DNA from: Deltaproteobacteria bacterium
Lineage (GTDB): Bacteria > Myxococcota > JACRCW01
Reading direction: 5' to 3'
Assembly (NCBI GenBank): GCA_016218805.1
Contig: JACRCW010000009.1
Location: forward strand, 1 to 38,999
DNA: 38,999 nt
Shown one piece after another: positions 1 to 9,985 of the stretch. Made by a program: the position numbers and the translations under genes. Within the stretch, counting starts at the first letter, position 1; each line of letters opens with the position of its first letter. The notes under the pieces were generated by a model. The model was not told where the DNA came from, searched no databases, and worked only from the letters and a program-made list of their open reading frames with translations.

Positions 1-31
1 CCTGCGCAACTTGTCGCGTATGGTCTTGTTC

Positions 32-100
32 ACTTGAAAAGCCCTCCGGTGGCCTCAAGCCACGTCGCTGTGAGCTTGGATTATCGGAGGCTTTTCAAGT
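32..100. repeat. Long imperfect inverted repeat / hairpin, possibly a bidirectional terminator, overlapping the stop codon of the 95-1417 gene
   Basis: ACTTGAAAAGCC(C)TCCG at 32-48 pairs with CGGAGGCTTTTCAAGT at 85-100. Inner CAAGC/GCTTG and CAC/GTG pairs extend the stem. TTTT follows the GC-rich stem on both strands. Confidence 0.7.
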
Positions 101-1417
101 TTGATCGGTGATTTCGCGCGGGGTCACGCTTCTTTTGGGGTTAGCTTCCCAGCCGACGCCTTCAAACCGAGCAGCGATGCACTTCTCAGACTCGGGCTCA
201 ACCCCGAGGCGCGCCCGCAGAAGCGTGGCGTTGTCACGAACAAACTGGGACGCAAGAGCACTTCCGGCCGGGGAGGACAGAATCAGCTGAGACTGTTTCT
301 TGAAGACGACAAAGGACCAATACAGCACATACGTAGTGCCAATCTGCGGGAACAGAGAGGGAATCTCCCTGGCGAGCGGGAGGAGATAGCTGGTGCCTTC
401 CTCTTTCCAGTGAGCCGCGCGCCAGCCATCCTGCTTCAGGCCCGGCCAGCACGCCCTGTGAAAAGCCAGTCTGGCCGACTTCTCGACGTCCTTTGCAGCG
501 GTGCGCTTGGCCGCGCTCGCTGTGAACTCTCTGGGCGGCTCAATCCTGACGGCTGGTGCTGGATCCTGAGGGCGTCTCTCCAGCACGGACTCGCGGAGGA
601 CGCTGTCTCTCGTCAGGTCCCAGAATCCCACCTTGAGGTCGTACCGTGATTGAACAAACTCCAAGGCCGCTTGGGCAGCACTCGCGTCGGCTTCTGAGCC
701 ACGGTCGAAGAACTTGGAGATTCGCAAGTCTGCGCCAACCAGCCCACTGGTTTTGTCCTGATGCCGCATGTATTCAGCCTTGAACGCCTCGCTCGCTGAG
801 GCGTCAATTGCATTCTCGTCGAGGAATCCCTTGGACAGCCAGCCCATCAGGTTGCGCACCTTCTGCTCAACCGCTTGGGTGTGCGGCAGCACCATGATGG
901 CGTTCGGCCACCGCTTGGCAATCTGATCGAGGGGGGCCAAGCCCAACATGTCCGTGCCTTCAGCAAAAAGATCATGAAATGCCCCGACGAAAACCACGGG
1001 AGGTCGCCGAGCAATGACGTCCTGAATTCGGAGTGAACTGATGAGGCCCCTGTGGCGAGCGGTAGCGAGCGCGGCGTCGATTTTCCCTTCCGACAAGTAG
1101 TCTGCATCCATAAGGTCAACGTAGTCCTTGAGGACGGTGCCGATTCTCCTTCGGGTAAACGTTCCGTCCGCCTTCGGTGCCATGACGGTTTTCGCGGTCC
1201 AGACGAGAGCCCACGCGTCCGAACCCGCGGCGTCGAGGAGAACCTTGACCAGGCCGTGTGCTGCGCTCCACCACTGCTCCGATCCAGCAAGGGAATGCCG
1301 AAGGCAGAAGTCCCAAGTGTCTCCGTCGATGCGTTGCCGCGTGTCCAGGGCGGTCCCAGACTCAAGCGTTATTGTGCCGCCGATCAAAAGTATGGTGGGG
1401 CCCGGCCTCTCACTCAT
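95..1417 (-). CDS. Hypothetical protein, 440 aa (MSERPGPTILL...), partner of the HNH-helicase
   Basis: Long ORF. The ATG at 1417 has GGAG upstream and the gene overlaps the helicase gene by 8 bp (ATGAGTGA). No family recognised. Confidence 0.75.
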   Translation of the reverse strand: MSERPGPTILLIGGTITLESGTALDTRQRIDGDTWDFCLRHSLAGSEQWWSAAHGLVKVLLDAAGSDAWALVWTAKTVMAPKADGTFTRRRIGTVLKDYVDLMDADYLSEGKIDAALATARHRGLISSLRIQDVIARRPPVVFVGAFHDLFAEGTDMLGLAPLDQIAKRWPNAIMVLPHTQAVEQKVRNLMGWLSKGFLDENAIDASASEAFKAEYMRHQDKTSGLVGADLRISKFFDRGSEADASAAQAALEFVQSRYDLKVGFWDLTRDSVLRESVLERRPQDPAPAVRIEPPREFTASAAKRTAAKDVEKSARLAFHRACWPGLKQDGWRAAHWKEEGTSYLLPLAREIPSLFPQIGTTYVLYWSFVVFKKQSQLILSSPAGSALASQFVRDNATLLRARLGVEPESEKCIAARFEGVGWEANPKRSVTPREITDQT

Positions 1418-3170
1418 CTTCGTTCTCCAGTGCTCGACGTATGGCTGGGTTCTCACTGGCAAGAAGAGCCAAGCTAACCGCGTCTGTGCCTTTGAGGCCC
1501 TTTCTGTCGATGTACCGCTGTGCCAACCTGAGCAACGGGTCGTCCGCAAAACGCCCGGAAGAATCCAGGGCATGCCGATCAGTCCCGCGCGATCCCAACG
1601 CCTGAAACTCCCCAACGCGGTTGTCGTCCGCGGAGACGCGTACCGGTCGGGGTGGTGGAGGTTCCACCTCGATTGTCATCGGTGGCGGGAGCAAGTTGAC
1701 CTCGGCTGTGATTGATCTGGCCATTTCCAGGAGACCGGGGTCGGCGGGCAGGTAAACACGGCCATGGTCGTCACGGTTCTTGGGGTCGGACCGCACGACC
1801 CTCCCGACGATCTGTCGAAAGCTCAGGATTGTCAGTCGATTCGTGAGGTACACGACAGCTCGCAGCCTGCGGATGTCAATGCCTTCAGACACCATGTTCA
1901 CAGCGACGATCCAGGGAACGTGACTGTGGCGAAACCCCTTCAGCGCGTCCGCTGGCGCCGGATCAGCCACGTTGTGCGTCCGGGAGCATGCGACAACCGG
2001 ACGCTCCGGGAGAACCTCGGCCTCCATGAACGTCGCGACCGCGTCTGCATGGTCGCAGTCTACAGCGACGACCAGGCCCGCCGCGTCCGTGTCTCCAGAG
2101 CGCCTGAGATCTATGAGGTATTGGTTTGCATCCGCCAGCAGCAGGTGAGCTATGGACTCTCGCCCCACCGATTCAAGTGCCGTGCGAAGGCGCTTCCGGC
2201 TTCCTGTGTCACTGAGTTCATCATCAAACGTGACACGGTGCGATTCTCCATCCTCCGATTGGAAGGTCGTCTCGCCCCGTCCGATGACAAACTGCACGGG
2301 CCGGCAAGCCTTGTCGGCAATGGCCTGATCATAGCCGTAGCGGTAGTGCGGTTTGGCGCTGCCGCCTTCGGACGGGACAAAGACGATGGGGTCGCGCTGC
2401 GTTCGAAAGGGCGTTCCAGAAAGGCTCAAAATTGCCCGTGCGCCACGATGGAACGCCTCTTGGGCGCTGACTCCCCATGCAGAGCCGGCACCCGCATGAT
2501 GCACCTCATCAAAGATGACGAGGGTGCGGTGGCCAGGATCCGAGGCATGCGCCAGGAACATGTCGCTGGCCGCGAACAGGCTTTGATACGTCGAGACCGC
2601 GCCCACCCAGTTCTCGGGAATCGGATTCACGGGCGACCAAGTCCGAGGCCCCACAAGGGGAATCGTCGGCGAGCTCGGGGACGTGGCGGATGCCGCGGAC
2701 AACCAGCCATCTGCGATACCGAGGCTGGGCACAATGACCAAGACCCTGCTGATTTCCCCGTTCAGAATCAGGCGGTAGGCGACTTCGAGGGCAAACTGCG
2801 TCTTCCCAGCGCCGGGACAGGCTTCAACGAGAACGGCTTCCTCAAGCAGGCGCGGCATGATGGCGGCGAGCGCCTCAACCTGCCATCGGCGGAGCGTGCC
2901 AGTGCCCGCCGCCAAGGTGTCAGCACGGAACCACTGCACAACGACCGCTTGAGGTTTGCTGCCCTTCCGGAGGTTGCAGCTGCCGCAGAGCGCCTGGCAG
3001 TTGTCGTACGCAGTTGGGCCGCCCTGACTCCAGGGAACCAGATGGTCCCCATGCATCAGGTCAAATGGAATTGCCCGACGGCAGAGCGCGCAGACCCGCC
3101 CCTGCCTCTCCCAGACCCGCTTGACCATGTCCCGTGGGAACATGCGTTGGAAGTCGTTCTCCACCTGCAA
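1410..3170 (-). CDS. HNH endonuclease fused to an SF2 (ResIII/DEAD-like) helicase
   Basis: N-terminal zinc-type HNH: CALC...HGDHLVPWSQGG...NCQALCGSCNLRKG. Helicase motifs: LRRWQ, ACPGAGKT (Walker A), DEVH, SGT, MVSEGIDI, QIVGRVVR. The true start may be GTG at 3164. Confidence 0.9.
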   Translation of the reverse strand: MQVENDFQRMFPRDMVKRVWERQGRVCALCRRAIPFDLMHGDHLVPWSQGGPTAYDNCQALCGSCNLRKGSKPQAVVVQWFRADTLAAGTGTLRRWQVEALAAIMPRLLEEAVLVEACPGAGKTQFALEVAYRLILNGEISRVLVIVPSLGIADGWLSAASATSPSSPTIPLVGPRTWSPVNPIPENWVGAVSTYQSLFAASDMFLAHASDPGHRTLVIFDEVHHAGAGSAWGVSAQEAFHRGARAILSLSGTPFRTQRDPIVFVPSEGGSAKPHYRYGYDQAIADKACRPVQFVIGRGETTFQSEDGESHRVTFDDELSDTGSRKRLRTALESVGRESIAHLLLADANQYLIDLRRSGDTDAAGLVVAVDCDHADAVATFMEAEVLPERPVVACSRTHNVADPAPADALKGFRHSHVPWIVAVNMVSEGIDIRRLRAVVYLTNRLTILSFRQIVGRVVRSDPKNRDDHGRVYLPADPGLLEMARSITAEVNLLPPPMTIEVEPPPPRPVRVSADDNRVGEFQALGSRGTDRHALDSSGRFADDPLLRLAQRYIDRKGLKGTDAVSLALLASENPAIRRALENEDE

Positions 3171-3743
3171 CCCCCAGTGCGCAGCGGGCAGGTGCCGCGC
3201 TTGTCACCACGCGCAGCATGCCACAAGTCCATGTGACGCCGCGCAGCGCAGTGCCACCCCATTCGTAGGTGCGTGTCTGCTCCTTTGGCCCAAACATGGA
3301 CAAGATGCCCAACGTACCAAGAACCGGCCCAGGTCGGGCTTGCCCTGCCCCAAGGAGCAGATCCCGTGGCCGTCATGCCCTGGCTCTTACGGCGGCTGGC
3401 GGGCCTGGTGCTTCGGCGCTCATCGGATTTGACCCTGTAGGTTTCATCGGATCTGGCCCGGTATGCCAACGGACGTCAACTGCGGCTTCTTGGGCAAAGG
3501 CCCGAAGTCGTTGGCGCGCGCCAATCAACCCACGCAGTCGACGAGTTGGCACGGCGGGGCAAGCATGGAGAAACTCACTGGGCAAGATCTGGTGAGCAGC
3601 GAACTGCGTGTTCGGGCGCACGCGCGTGGGTCACCATTGGGGCCGATCAAACGCCTCACGCCGCGCAAGGTGGACCAGGCCAGGGATGGATGTGAGCTTC
3701 CGAAGACCTTGATGTCGACGGAAGGACCGTCGCTTGGGAACGC

Positions 3744-4544
3744 TCACAACCCCAATGCCGCCGCGGCCTCCGCGGCGCCCGGTACATCGGTGCGCAGCGA
3801 AGGGACCTTGGCCAACGCCTGACTCAGGTTCGCCCGCGCCTCGTCGTTCCTGCCCAGCTTGTGCAAGCACAACCCCGCCATCAGCGTGGCCAGCGGGTTG
3901 CGCTGACCGGGCTTGAGCCGCTCGTACGCCTCCAGCGCCTCCGCAAACCGGCCCATGGCGAACAGCACGTCCCCCTTGATCTTGGCGTTGTAGGGGTGTT
4001 CGCCGAGTTGCAGGGATGCCTGCGCGGCCGCCAACGCCGCCTTGTGGGCGCCCAGGGCCAGCAACACTTCGGCTTTGGTTGACAGGTCGTCGCACAGCTG
4101 GCGGTTCCACAGGAAGCCGTACGTCTCGCCATGCCCGGCCCGCGCCGCCGCGCGGTCCAGGTTGGACAGGCACTCGTCGGTCTTCTTCGCCACGCACTGC
4201 CGGTCAATGTCAATGATGCGGTTGGCGACGAACAGGGCTTCACGCAGGTGGGTCCGGTCCGTAATCCCACCCGCCACCGCCCACGTCTGCTCCAGGTCCC
4301 GTGTGCCCAGCAGCTGGTTGCGCAGCGCGCGCCAGGCCCGCCGCTGGGTCACCGCGTCCGCCGGCGTGCCCTCCGGGAGCGCCACGGGGATGCCGGCGGG
4401 TTCACGCGCGCAGCCGGCCAGCACCAACCCGGCCACCACCGCGGCGCATCCCCACCGGCGTGGCCGCGGTGCACCCGCCGCCATCGCGCGGCCGTTGGGG
4501 GCCGGGTCTGGGGCGTCGTCCTGGGCTTCCCGGCCGCTCTTCAT
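3744..4544 (-). CDS. TPR-repeat lipoprotein
   Basis: ATG 4544 with GAGGAG upstream; lipobox LAGC after a hydrophobic stretch; C-terminal TPR helices (KGDVLFAMGRFAEALEAYE, GLCLHKLGRNDEA). Alternative start at 4484. Confidence 0.75.
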   Translation of the reverse strand: MKSGREAQDDAPDPAPNGRAMAAGAPRPRRWGCAAVVAGLVLAGCAREPAGIPVALPEGTPADAVTQRRAWRALRNQLLGTRDLEQTWAVAGGITDRTHLREALFVANRIIDIDRQCVAKKTDECLSNLDRAAARAGHGETYGFLWNRQLCDDLSTKAEVLLALGAHKAALAAAQASLQLGEHPYNAKIKGDVLFAMGRFAEALEAYERLKPGQRNPLATLMAGLCLHKLGRNDEARANLSQALAKVPSLRTDVPGAAEAAAALGL

Positions 4545-7457: not shown

Positions 7458-8087
7458 ATGCGCCAGAGCCTGTGCCTGTTCGCCACTGCTGCTTTTCTCC
7501 TGACTGAATTCGCCTTGGCACCCGCGCCGGCAGCGGCCGCACCCCTGGTGGTCCAGGGGCAGGCCGGGGACGCCCAATGGGAGTTGGTGAAGAAGAAGAA
7601 GAAGAAGGCGTCGGAGGACGACGCCGAAGACGAGGACCCCTCCAGCCGTGGTCTGATGGACTACTTCACGGGCTCATTCAAGTTCGGCCAGGAGTGGTCT
7701 GAGGAGGTGGAGGACAACCTGGTGGTGACGTGGATCCTGGGTGCGCTGTTCAGCGGGCTTGGCGGCCACATCTGGGCGCCGATGATCTTCTACAAGGACG
7801 TACCGGACAACGGGGCGAAGAAGAACGCGATGATCCTCGGAATCATCGCCACGGTGCTGTACTGGATCCCCGGCGTATTCCCGTTGCTCATACCGGGCAT
7901 CTACTTCTGGACCATCGGCTTCTGGCTGTTCCTCCTGTGGGTCGGCATCGTGGAGTGTTTCATCATGCCCCGCGCGGTGGCGATGGCGACTTCCGACGCC
8001 TACAAGCTCGGCGGCGATGGCGGGGATGAGCCCAAGAAGAAGAAGAAGAAGAAGAAGAAGAAGGCCGACGACGAAGACGAAGAGTGA
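7458..8087 (+). CDS. Hypothetical membrane protein with signal peptide and two poly-Lys/acidic tracts
   Basis: GGAG SD; N-terminal signal-like segment; about three hydrophobic helices; K6 and K10 runs, each followed by a D/E run. Confidence 0.75.
   Translation: MRQSLCLFATAAFLLTEFALAPAPAAAAPLVVQGQAGDAQWELVKKKKKKASEDDAEDEDPSSRGLMDYFTGSFKFGQEWSEEVEDNLVVTWILGALFSGLGGHIWAPMIFYKDVPDNGAKKNAMILGIIATVLYWIPGVFPLLIPGIYFWTIGFWLFLLWVGIVECFIMPRAVAMATSDAYKLGGDGGDEPKKKKKKKKKKADDEDEE
7590..7607 (+). repeat. (AAG)6 tract encoding K6
   Basis: Seen directly in the sequence. Confidence 0.9.
8034..8063 (+). repeat. (AAG)10 tract encoding K10
   Basis: Seen directly in the sequence. Confidence 0.9.
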
Positions 8088-8182
8088 CCCTCCGCGGATG
8101 ATGGCGGATGCGCGCGGCGGACGGGACCCCTGTCAACGGTCCCGACGCCGCGCCGGTTTGTGCGGGAAGTCCAGGGAGCGCC

Positions 8183-9043
8183 ATGGCGGACGTGGTTGGG
8201 GTCATTGGCGGGAGCGGGCTGTATGAGATGCCCGGTCTTGCCGACGTCAGGCGGGTGAAGGTGGAGACGCCCTTTGGGGCGCCGTCTGACGCGCTGGTCA
8301 CCGGCCGGCTGGACAGCGTGCCCATGGTGTTCCTGCCGCGCCACGGCGTGGGCCACCGGCACACGCCCACCGAGGTCCCCTACGTGGCCAACATCTGGGC
8401 CCTCAAGAAGCTGGGCGTCACGCGCATCATCAGCGTGTCCGCCGTGGGCAGCCTGCGTGAGGACATTGCACCCGGCCACGTGGTGCTGGTGGACCAGTTC
8501 ATGGACCGCACCCGCGCGCGCCGCAGCACGTTCTTTGGCGGCGGGATTGCCGGGCACGTGGCGTTTGGTGACCCGGTGTGCGGGCCGCTGCATGACGCGG
8601 CGCTGGAGGCGGCGCGCACGGTGGGCGTCACCGTCCACGCGCACGGCACGTATGTCTGCATGGAGGGACCCCAGTTCTCCACGCGCGCGGAGAGCATGCT
8701 GCACCGCCGTGACGGCGCGGACGTGGTGGGGATGACCAACATGCCGGAGGCCAAGCTCGCCCGGGAGGCGGAGATCTGTTACGCCACGCTGGCGCTGGCC
8801 ACGGACTATGACTGCTGGCACGAACACCACGACGACGTGACGGTGGAGACGGTCATTGCCGTGCTCAAGGCCAACGTGGCGCACGCCCAGCAGATCATCC
8901 GCGAGACGGTCCGCCGCCTCCCCGCCGAGCGCACCTGCCCGTGCGCCAGCGCGGCACGCAACGCGGTGATGACCGCGCCGGACCTCATCCCGCCGCGCCG
9001 CCGTGAGGAGCTGGAGCTGTTGTTCGGGCGCTACTGGAAGTGA
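8183..9043 (+). CDS. mtnP: S-methyl-5'-thioadenosine phosphorylase
   Basis: GVIGGSGLY, FLPRHG, ANIWALKKLGV, EGPQFSTRAES, GMTNMPEAKLAREAEICY, TDYDCW; GGAG SD before ATG 8183. Confidence 0.93.
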   Translation: MADVVGVIGGSGLYEMPGLADVRRVKVETPFGAPSDALVTGRLDSVPMVFLPRHGVGHRHTPTEVPYVANIWALKKLGVTRIISVSAVGSLREDIAPGHVVLVDQFMDRTRARRSTFFGGGIAGHVAFGDPVCGPLHDAALEAARTVGVTVHAHGTYVCMEGPQFSTRAESMLHRRDGADVVGMTNMPEAKLAREAEICYATLALATDYDCWHEHHDDVTVETVIAVLKANVAHAQQIIRETVRRLPAERTCPCASAARNAVMTAPDLIPPRRREELELLFGRYWK

Positions 9044-9064
9044 CGTTTCTCGTCGAGGTGGATC

Positions 9065-9985
9065 GTGACGCTCCTGGTGGTTGGCAGTGTGGCCTTTGAC
9101 AGTGTGCAGACGCCCTTTGGCAAGAAGGAGCGCGTGCTGGGGGGCAGCGCCAACTTCTTCTCCATGTCCGCCAGCCTGCTCACGCGCGTGCAGCTGGTGG
9201 GGGTCATTGGGGAGGACTTCCCGGAGGACCACGTGGGGTACCTGCAGCAGCGCGGCGTGGATACCGCCGGGCTCACGCGCGTACCGGGCCGCACCTTCCA
9301 CTGGCGCGGCCGCTACGAATACGACCTCAACGAAGCGCACACCCTGGAGACGCAGCTCAACGTGTTTGCGGACTTCCGGCCCAACCTGCCGGAGGCGTTC
9401 CGGCGCCCTGACCATCTGTTCCTGGCCAACATTGACCCGGAGCTGCAGGCGCTGGTGCTGGAGCAGGTGACGCGCCCCAAGCTGGTGGCCCTGGACACCA
9501 TGAACTACTGGATCTCCGGCAAGCGCCAGGCGCTGCTCAAGGTGCTCCGGGACGTGGACGTGCTGTTTGTCAATGACGCGGAAGCGCGCCAGCTCTCCGG
9601 CGAGCACAACGTGGTCAAGGCGGGTGCGGCCATCCGGAAGATGGGACCGCGCACCGTCATCATCAAGCGCGGCGAATACGGCGCCCTCATGCTGGAGCAC
9701 GGCACGGCGTTCTACGTCCCCGCCTACCCGCTGGAGGACGTCTTTGACCCCACGGGTGCGGGGGACACGTTTGCCGGCGGCGTCATGGGCGCGCTGGACC
9801 GGTGGGGCGGCTTCAACACGCAGACCGCGCGGCAGGCCATGGTGGTAGGCGGAGTATTGGCCAGTTTTGTGGTGGAGGACTTCAGCTTTGACCGGCTGCG
9901 CACCACGTCCCTGGAGGACGTGCAGCGGCGTTACGCGGACCTGCGGCAGTTCACGGACTTCAAGGACCTGCCCACCGCGGACTGA
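9065..9985 (+). CDS. PfkB/ribokinase-family carbohydrate or nucleoside kinase
   Basis: VGSVAFD, LGGSA, VNDAEA and the PfkB signature DPTGAGDTFAGG. Confidence 0.9.
   Translation: MTLLVVGSVAFDSVQTPFGKKERVLGGSANFFSMSASLLTRVQLVGVIGEDFPEDHVGYLQQRGVDTAGLTRVPGRTFHWRGRYEYDLNEAHTLETQLNVFADFRPNLPEAFRRPDHLFLANIDPELQALVLEQVTRPKLVALDTMNYWISGKRQALLKVLRDVDVLFVNDAEARQLSGEHNVVKAGAAIRKMGPRTVIIKRGEYGALMLEHGTAFYVPAYPLEDVFDPTGAGDTFAGGVMGALDRWGGFNTQTARQAMVVGGVLASFVVEDFSFDRLRTTSLEDVQRRYADLRQFTDFKDLPTAD

Follow-up and report, generated by a model that had tools for sequence, protein, structure and literature searches.

A conserved HNH-helicase gene pair, its partner gene split by an insertion sequence, as a candidate for an undescribed type of nuclease-helicase defence module

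The left end of a contig from a Deltaproteobacteria bacterium (assembly GCA_016218805.1, contig JACRCW010000009.1) raises the question of whether two adjacent genes, one for an HNH nuclease fused to a superfamily 2 (SF2) helicase and one for a protein resembling no named family, belong together, and whether they act against invading DNA. The stretch analysed, hereafter the window, measures 38,999 bp and is the entire contig (C3) of a genome of 170 contigs and 6.43 Mb. An initial annotation, made from the letters of the window alone, had read the pair as an uncharacterised anti-phage or anti-plasmid system, closed by a strong hairpin and lying at the edge of a defence island. We found a conserved two-gene unit whose second gene appears to be split by an insertion sequence (IS), and taken alone this statement is very probably correct. 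The whole statement, that the locus is a horizontally acquired, IS-damaged two-gene nuclease-helicase module of an undescribed defence type, stands in our judgement somewhat above even, the defence role included.

The first gene (3170..1410, minus strand) starts with TTG and encodes P0001, a protein of 586 amino acids (aa). Pfam identified in it an HNH domain (PF01844; aa 27-71, window 2958-3092, E 7.9e-12), a ResIII/RecA1 domain (aa 92-256, window 2403-2897, E 3.1e-16) and a Helicase_C/RecA2 domain (aa 406-461, window 1788-1955, E 8.4e-6), all encoded on the minus strand, and the alignment of homologues added a conserved C-terminal tail (aa ~490-586). Across 14 sequences, P0001 and 13 homologues, the HNH residues D42-H43, N57, C62, C65 and N66 are invariant and the zinc cysteines C27 and C30 nearly so; on the helicase side, invariance extends to the Walker A motif ACPGAGKT (G120-A121-G122-K123-T124), the DEVH motif (D221-E222-H224-H225), motif III (G252-T253-P254) and motif VI (Q453..R457..R460). 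P0001 looks intact, with its nuclease and helicase catalytic motifs all present, and the initial description of an intact zinc-type HNH nuclease N-terminal to a full SF2 helicase is borne out by these domains and residues. The helicase family is large, with 3690 relatives among the 8000 candidates scored, and spans Actinomycetota, Gemmatimonadota, Binatia, Acidobacteriota and the window's own phylum; the best relatives, 59-69% identical, come from Gemmatimonadaceae, Binatia, Acidimicrobiales, Streptomyces, Pseudonocardia, Mycobacteroides and Mycobacterium. In the source records, the helicase is named only as a "DEAD/DEAH box helicase" family protein and the partner as a "hypothetical protein".

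Within the window, the helicase stop codon (1410-1412) and the ATG of the partner gene (at 1417) overlap by 8 bp (1410..1417, minus strand), as had been reported before, and the two genes are likely to be translationally coupled. To follow the pair elsewhere, 80 metagenome loci were fetched with the helicase alignment, and their open reading frames (ORFs) were scanned with a profile hidden Markov model (HMM) of 77 partner sequences. When the count is confined to loci with a close helicase (HMM score of at least 750 bits), a complete 3' end and 400 bp or more of downstream sequence, 33 of 33 have a partner-family gene next to the helicase gene. It mostly overlaps or abuts the helicase gene, with overlaps or gaps of a few bases in most related loci, and the same pair with a 4-bp overlap is found in an Acidimicrobiia genome (L003). 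A more distant clade of helicases, 45-48% identical, carries a partner-family ORF directly upstream in 12 of the 17 loci that have no downstream partner, as detected with a long-form HMM; of the five misses, L059, L068 and L072 offer less than 1.1 kb upstream, and the helicase is truncated in L040 and L041. Some of the fetched loci are near-identical, leaving 21 non-identical full pairs. These 21 modules yield 202 pairwise comparisons, in which the helicases share a median of 61.3% identity and the partners 29.4%; in 199 of the 202 it is the partner that has diverged further, and the two identities are correlated (r = 0.91). The alignments indicate that helicase and partner are co-inherited, with the partner evolving about twice as fast. 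No third constant gene was detected, as no neighbour family recurs among the non-identical loci (916 ORFs clustered).

The arrangement of the pair varies. The reversed gene order is found at L055-L057, L060-L062, L064-L067, L069, L070 and L082, where the partners are mostly longer (249-830 aa, about 710-830 aa in strong matches). At L047, L048 and L049 the partner is convergent with the helicase, the 3' ends overlapping by 4 bp; L049 also encodes an integrase, a Tn3 transposase, a pentapeptide-repeat protein and a KAP-NTPase/WD40 protein. At L025 (2462-5355), L028 (6148-9016) and L029 (6730-9598), a single helicase gene is followed by two diverged paralogues of the partner in tandem.

The second gene of the window had been annotated as encoding a 440-aa protein of no recognisable family, with a strong hairpin closing the unit. 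Window positions 1-139 are the last 139 bases, the right-hand end, of a multi-copy IS (99-100% identity to the end of contig C107). The IS finishes with a terminal inverted repeat, CGCTTCTTTTGGG (about 126-139), which matches the other IS end, and is followed within the partner gene by the target-site duplication (TSD) gttagc (140..145), the reverse complement of GCTAAC at positions 137-142 of contig C30. The ORF P0002 (95..1417, minus strand) is a chimera of 424 native codons (146-1417, minus strand), which are supported by the alignments, the AF2 model and the phmmer family, and 16 codons and a stop taken from the TSD and the IS end (95-145). Partner-family homology ends at an invariant G422-W423, followed by E424, and thereafter the conserved C-terminal helices are gone. 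Since residues 425-440, the stop codon and the hairpin lie inside the IS end, both the "440-aa protein" and the closing hairpin are artefacts. The hairpin (28-102, about 30-100) is a real fold (-34.6 kcal/mol, z -5.7, 0 of 200 shuffles as stable), but it belongs to the IS and does not close the operon.

The element at 1-139 has the hallmarks of an insertion sequence, with several copies at different sites, terminal inverted repeats and a TSD. At 99% identity, window 3-145 recurs at the end of C107, where recJ comes next. The other IS end forms the starts of C29, C30 and C47 and lies inside C126 (9787-9929), and a 13-bp terminal inverted repeat, CGCTTCTTTT(G/A)GG, is common to both IS ends (C29, C30 and C47 compared). 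The recJ-side copy has a duplication of its own, ATTAGC on C107 and GCTAAT on C29, which explains the single mismatch between C3 and C107 at window position 140. Moreover, synteny with the sister genome G011 puts the start of C29 beside recJ, and the second IS copy is thereby supported independently. The duplications are of 5-6 bp and TTAG-type; such TTAG/CTAA targets are reminiscent of the YTAR preference of IS5-family elements.

On C30, GCTAAC (137-142) stands directly after the IS end, and the partner frame then runs in phase for 288 codons (P0272; L090:137-1003). Residues 6-46 of this tail match a stretch of the relative P0020 that lies past its P0002 homology (phmmer E 7e-4). As hhalign of the tail against the C-terminal alignment found nothing, the link to C30 rests on the phmmer match to P0020 and on the TSD. 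The unsplit partner would measure 424 + 288 = 712 residues versus the usual ~500, and the last ~170 residues of the tail have no match in related loci. By these sequence relationships, the partner gene appears to be split after codon 424 by an IS with its TSD, with the 3' part on C30; this copy is consequently damaged and possibly inactive. The initial annotation had also recommended looking to the left of the window; in that direction we found more of the IS, the continuation of the partner on C30 and no defence island. We also observed that the 288 codons of the tail compare with 60-90 residues after the GW in relatives, that the tail contains a low-complexity linker, and that it has a hydrophobic stretch near where relatives finish with a GFFRRLF-like motif.

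Four sequencing runs were found for the source, all of one study and with no RNA run among them. In the Logan contigs of run X1, words of the IS end have a depth of 228.3 versus 26.8 in the unique part, a depth that is not a copy number, and four other continuations occur after positions 140-145. In run X3, one contig extends the IS by a further 1318 bases to the left of window position 1, so that the IS is at least about 1.46 kb long. The IS interior is missing from the binned genome, in which two flanks of this end are present (C3 and C107), no transposase was seen, and no complete IS copy was found in 20 relatives; a related IS end, 81% identical, stands at three contig starts of G011. None of the Logan contigs bridges an uninterrupted partner gene, though contigs cannot show absence. 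At the level of the assembly, 502 contig-end pairs share about 139-141 bases, which points to breaks at repeats with k of about 141 and several large repeat families, and the assembly graph could be partly re-threaded from these overlaps.

The claim that the partner belongs to no recognisable family survived the correction of its length: P0002 gave no match in Pfam, PADLOC, NCBIfam or PHROGs, although its native homology ends at residue 424 and not at 440. A word-indexed homologue search retrieved only the partner itself and the profile version three proteins, so that an exhaustive phmmer search was needed; this gave 170 representatives at E<=1e-3, the best being 35-40% identical and 480-550 aa long. 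The most conserved motif is RYDLKVGFWDL (aa 258-268; family pattern RYDLKxGxWDLxRDxxLR), other conserved residues are D25, R27, W50 and H179-T180, and no P-loop was found in the partner. An AF2 model from 82 sequences is confident (predicted local distance difference test, pLDDT, 93.2; predicted template-modelling score 0.91). It consists of a RecA2-like alpha/beta domain (aa ~2-283, window 569-1414), delimited by VIA-align, a long helix (aa 296-329) and an alpha+beta domain ending at the invariant GW (aa 343-424, window 146-391), the last delimited also by the alignments.

When this model was compared by VIA-align with 48,161 chains, all 50 matches listed fell on residues 1-306, and nearly all of them were the second RecA domain of SF2-type helicases or translocases (Z 9.2-7.1 over residues ~2-283). 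Examples are DRH-1 (Z 9.2, root-mean-square deviation 3.2, 140 residues aligned), UvrB (9.0) and Eta (8.7), and FANCM, HsdR, EcoP15I Res and HamB (8vx9_B, Z 7.5) are also among those listed. As these Z values barely exceed those of unrelated models (typically 7-8), the argument lies in the consistency of the match list. It suggests that the N-terminal domain of the partner resembles an inactive helicase RecA2 domain from which the ATPase motifs are missing.

The rest of the partner varies within the family, with an alpha+beta domain and helices in forms of ~500 aa and HEAT repeats in relatives of 816-875 aa (4 of the 5 long representatives). The C-terminal region of a full-length relative, the L003 partner, was modelled confidently (pLDDT 91.9), and its two last helices and hairpin, which come after the GW strand, are the part lost to the IS in the window's copy. 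No fold was assigned to this domain, as its best VIA-align match (2a8e, Z 6.3) is at noise level, like the weaker ones to PsiB (Z 6.1), type III secretion system chaperones and the MotA C-terminal domain. An ESM Atlas model of P0002 was poor (pLDDT 0.44), and its DUF4268/GmrSD-type structural neighbours were discarded. The partner was also considered as a duplicated helicase, for which no evidence was found: hhalign of the partner and helicase profiles gave a probability of 0.7%. P0001 aa 537-586 and P0002 aa 238-283 do share a pattern, ..A.R.L/F...R....DL/SLAL....P.LR..LL, which at that hhalign probability is not significant.

Co-folding of helicase and partner, a check proposed at the outset, gave a complex prediction score of 0.33 (runs 0.46, 0.01 and 0.33), above the best of three controls (0.00). 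The mark for this score was reached by 116 of 157 solved complexes and by 2 of 215 mismatched pairs; of these, just 18 of the 157 solved complexes, but both of the mismatches, reached it at 0.60 or under. Contact agreement between the runs is at least 0%, and the pLDDT of the partner is at least 76. The prediction lends weak support to the idea that helicase and partner may bind each other.

We then asked whether the module could be a divergent member of a described system, namely PbeABCD, Hachiman, type III or type I restriction-modification (R-M), Hna or Nhi. With PADLOC-DB in a version of 2023, the best match of P0001 was PbeA (E 1.1e-12, 45 bits), which covers only aa 92-257 and 408-469, that is, generic helicase motifs. 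According to the passages on it in Xiong et al. (2019, PMC6459918), PbeA combines a PLD domain with a type III Res domain and a helicase, and PbeB, the SMC-like PbeC, PbeD and phosphorothioation of the DNA are all required for the Pbe system. PbeA and P0001 are alike in having a nuclease-type domain N-terminal to a ResIII/SF2 helicase; however, P0001 has an HNH domain and, by Pfam, no PLD domain, and in place of PbeB, PbeC and PbeD the sole conserved companion here is a protein with 0 PADLOC and Pfam matches. No dnd gene or DNA methyltransferase was found by Pfam in window 1-38999 or on C30, to which the dnd search was confined, and the initial remark that no methylase is visible in the window was correct.

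Hachiman (HamAB) is likewise an adjacent two-gene module of a nuclease and a helicase, and HamB RecA2 is among the fold matches of the partner. Its nuclease, however, is the separate HamA, whereas P0001 unites nuclease and helicase in one chain and its partner shows no nuclease signature. In PADLOC, P0002, the L003 partner and a long-form partner gave 0 matches, HamA (DUF1837) included, and no HamB model is among the best 25 of the 34 PADLOC matches of P0001, while a real HamB (L023) scores 6.5e-215. The type III Res, type I HsdR and type ISP enzymes (EcoP15I, LlaGI, LlaBIII) share the ResIII-type translocase, and the EcoP15I Res and HsdR RecA2 domains also appear among the partner's fold matches, but the P0001 profile matches the LlaBIII, LlaGI and HsdR chains only weakly (E 5e-5 to 1e-4). 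These R-M systems differ in having a methyltransferase or specificity subunit, which the islet lacks; neither the window nor C30 encodes a DNA methylase, and related loci share no recurring one. Their nuclease is of the PD-(D/E)xK type versus the N-terminal HNH of P0001. The NCBIfam models for type I R subunits (NF008521, 36.2 bits versus a cut-off of 729; NF046051, 26.4 versus 550) and for dnd restriction (33 bits versus 600) remained far below their cut-offs.

Other helicase-nuclease effectors against phages or plasmids are DdmDE, Hna and Nhi. DdmD is directed by a separate non-nuclease partner, the Argonaute-like DdmE, and Hna and Nhi each consist of one protein with a different nuclease fold; the searches made, none of them aimed at these systems, gave no sequence or fold link to them. 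In full-text literature searches, we found no description of an HNH-helicase and partner pair; the paper retrieved for HNH-helicases deals with a Cas3-like protein, and the HNH passages of PMC12839542 concern BREX accessories. Despite the ResIII domain and the PbeA match, membership of a described system is extremely unlikely, and the module appears to match none. The earlier remark that architecture and partner were not recognisable as a known nuclease-helicase system agrees with the PADLOC run.

The solved-structure matches of the helicase profile bear on another explanation, that of a horizontally spread DNA-repair pair which, like archaeal XPB-Bax1, works on bubbles or forks in DNA and takes no part in conflict. 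XPBII (6p4f/5tnu) is the best of these matches (E 2.2e-6), and Rad25, the Cas9 and McrA HNH domains, LlaGI, LlaBIII and HsdR are also among the best; in addition, the partner's best fold match in BFVD is an SSL2/XPB-like phage helicase (E 2.2e-3), and XPB-Bax1 too places an XPB-like SF2 helicase next to a dedicated partner of about 450-500 aa. However, the XPBII match is weak (29.5 bits) and covers only profile positions 88-235, the motif I-II region. In XPB-Bax1 the partner is the nuclease, whereas here the nuclease sits on the helicase and the partner looks non-catalytic. Bax1 is absent among the 50 VIA-align matches listed for either partner model, which does not exclude it. The cassette is also sporadic (two phylum samples of 400 other genomes each gave 0 carriers), and its foreign composition, fast-evolving partner and common mobile-element neighbours are untypical of repair genes, so that we consider a repair function very unlikely.

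The foreign composition had been noted initially and is confirmed against the whole genome, whose GC content is 0.70 versus 0.59-0.63 across window 1-3000. GC is 0.63-0.65 before the right border, climbs beyond ~3700 and reaches 0.74 past 4000; on C30 it is 0.62 until ~1000 and 0.68-0.74 thereafter. The two profiles together indicate ~4.4 kb of foreign DNA with two genes only. The non-coding stretch upstream of the helicase gene, which contains the right border, occupies 3171..3743. A promoter scan of 1-3800 gave a sole promoter-like match, inside the partner gene, and none upstream of the helicase gene. No direct repeats (att sites) join the islet borders on C3 and C30, where only chance 10-11-mers were seen, and tRNA and Rfam scans of the window gave 0 matches; synteny with G011 stops short of the islet borders.

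The setting is an isolated two-gene low-GC islet of ~4.4 kb amid housekeeping genes on both contigs. As no methylase and no further defence gene was found by Pfam around it in the window or on C30, the islet is not the edge of a defence island, and that part of the initial annotation is not supported. The remainder of C30 encodes an ABC ATPase, a di-haem peroxidase, an arginase-family enzyme and a HEAT protein. In the rest of the window, Pfam identified TPR proteins, RlmN, a purine-nucleoside phosphorylase, a PfkB kinase, universal stress proteins, cbb3 oxidase subunits, a P-type ATPase, a rhomboid protein, a Ser/Thr kinase and a 3369-aa TPR/ARM-repeat protein, which occupies the last 10 kb of the contig (28887-38996, minus strand). 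A further ORF (7458-8087, plus strand) encodes a 209-aa predicted membrane protein with two runs of 6-11 lysines and acidic tails.

The cassette is also rare elsewhere. The helicase was found in 0 of 400 other genomes of the window's phylum at E<=1e-50 and in 0 of 400 in the phylum of the Acidimicrobiia carrier at E<=1e-100; together with the foreign GC, this absence from the phylum argues for horizontal acquisition. The 50,697 phage records gave one distant match (34% identity), the 2.9 million viral contigs three loci, and the 72,556 plasmid records 14 matches, on actinobacterial, Pseudomonas and Vibrio plasmids, all below 60% identity (31-35%). From these searches, the cassette appears rare, patchy and mostly chromosomal.

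In 78 neighbouring ORFs from 20 loci, scanned with Pfam and PADLOC and taken as raw counts without a background rate, mobile-element genes (relaxase, type IV coupling protein, ArdC, Replic_Relax, integrase or transposase) are near the module in 8 of the 20 loci. They include TrwC relaxases (L022, L024), a TrwB-type coupling protein with RadC and ThiF (L015), ArdC (L051), Replic_Relax (L012), integrases (L023, L049) and transposases (L018, L023, L049). Known defence genes were identified as well: a full Hachiman HamB helicase in divergent orientation next to the module at L023 (1577-3805), on a contig that also encodes an integrase and a transposase, AbiEii at L022 (E 9e-71), a type IV restriction enzyme at L045 (E 1e-64) and a DpdJ-like fragment at L020 (E 8e-36), besides weaker matches to E1-E2, QatA-like and GajB-like proteins. 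This context is only suggestive of a defence role.

The same neighbours, and the plasmid-borne distant helicase relatives, are also what one would see if the cassette were cargo serving a mobile element, in DNA processing, establishment, competitor exclusion or counter-defence, and not host immunity. However, no conjugation gene is constant among the neighbours, L003 and the window hold the pair alone between housekeeping genes, the plasmid records contain no close relatives, and a fast-diverging, duplicated partner fits a role in conflict better than element housekeeping. We therefore regard the cargo explanation as unlikely, if still to be reckoned with.

Several observations weigh against a defence module as we propose it. 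The copy in the window is broken and cannot show activity, and it is flanked by housekeeping genes. Strong known defence neighbours, which the initial annotation had suggested looking for, occur in just 4 of the 20 loci and not around the window's copy. The defence role is drawn from context only. The Z of 9.2 for the partner fold is middling, and Foldseek, also recommended initially, found nothing at E<=1e-3 in the PDB or BFVD with the partner model. The complex prediction is weak, with one of the three runs at 0.01. In addition, three of the four genome-contig loci (L004-L006, from three kin Marinacidobacterales genomes, at about 7700-9550) have a partner without a helicase, each beside a transposase or IS gene; these loci showed no remnant of a helicase, and G402, one of the genomes, contains no helicase homologue at E<=1e-20 in its entire 8.1 Mb. 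The orphan partners could be remnants, or the partner may be used on its own there. What had been called an uncharacterised anti-phage or anti-plasmid system thus holds as a conserved, co-inherited and horizontally acquired pair with no described match, while its defence role is still deduced from context.

The orphan partners also fit a toxin-antitoxin-like or abortive module, in which the HNH-helicase would be toxic and the partner its stoichiometric inhibitor, released on infection or element loss. Consistent with this, the genes are likely translationally coupled, the helicase never lacks the partner in the close loci while the partner can occur alone, and AbiEii and other abortive systems adjoin some loci. 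In the window, however, the partner is truncated while the helicase motifs are kept, and the organism is still abundant (word depth 26.8), so that a strictly essential antitoxin is disfavoured, unless the 424-residue fragment suffices; moreover, the orphans come from three related genomes only. Such a module is quite unlikely in our view.

Returning to the nuclease-helicase defence module, we propose that P0001 would act as an ATP-driven DNA translocase of the SF2 (ResIII/XPB-like) type with an N-terminal zinc-type HNH nuclease. Its coupled partner, of a previously unnamed family with a RecA2-shaped N-terminus, a long helix and a variable C-terminal part, would form a complex with it and, as its sensor or adaptor, either license or hold back the translocating nuclease in its action on invading phage or plasmid DNA. 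Elsewhere, the cassette rides on or beside conjugative or integrative elements and known defence genes. In a more specific version, the partner may be a new immune sensor, an ATPase-dead pseudo-helicase seated on the HNH-helicase, whose C-terminal module detects a phage or plasmid component and activates the nuclease. The alpha+beta domain, the HEAT repeats or the tandem paralogues would then represent an exchangeable, fast-diversifying recognition module, and the C-terminal tail motif of the helicase might be an autoinhibitory mimic of the partner motif, displaced by the partner. This version is speculative, and we think it rather improbable as it stands.

For annotation, the lesson of this locus is that an apparent gene end and terminator came from an IS insertion and an assembly break, and that the 440-aa protein was wrongly annotated. 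The interest of the finding is moderate to high for the family and lower for this damaged copy. Nuclease-helicase pairs are a recurring solution in prokaryotic immunity, each known one with a different sensing partner. With strict pairing in two gene orders, a partner that appears to diverge twice as fast and a confidently modelled fold that is still unassigned, this pair is a well-defined candidate for experiments, and it could reveal how a non-enzymatic helicase-like domain controls a translocating nuclease.

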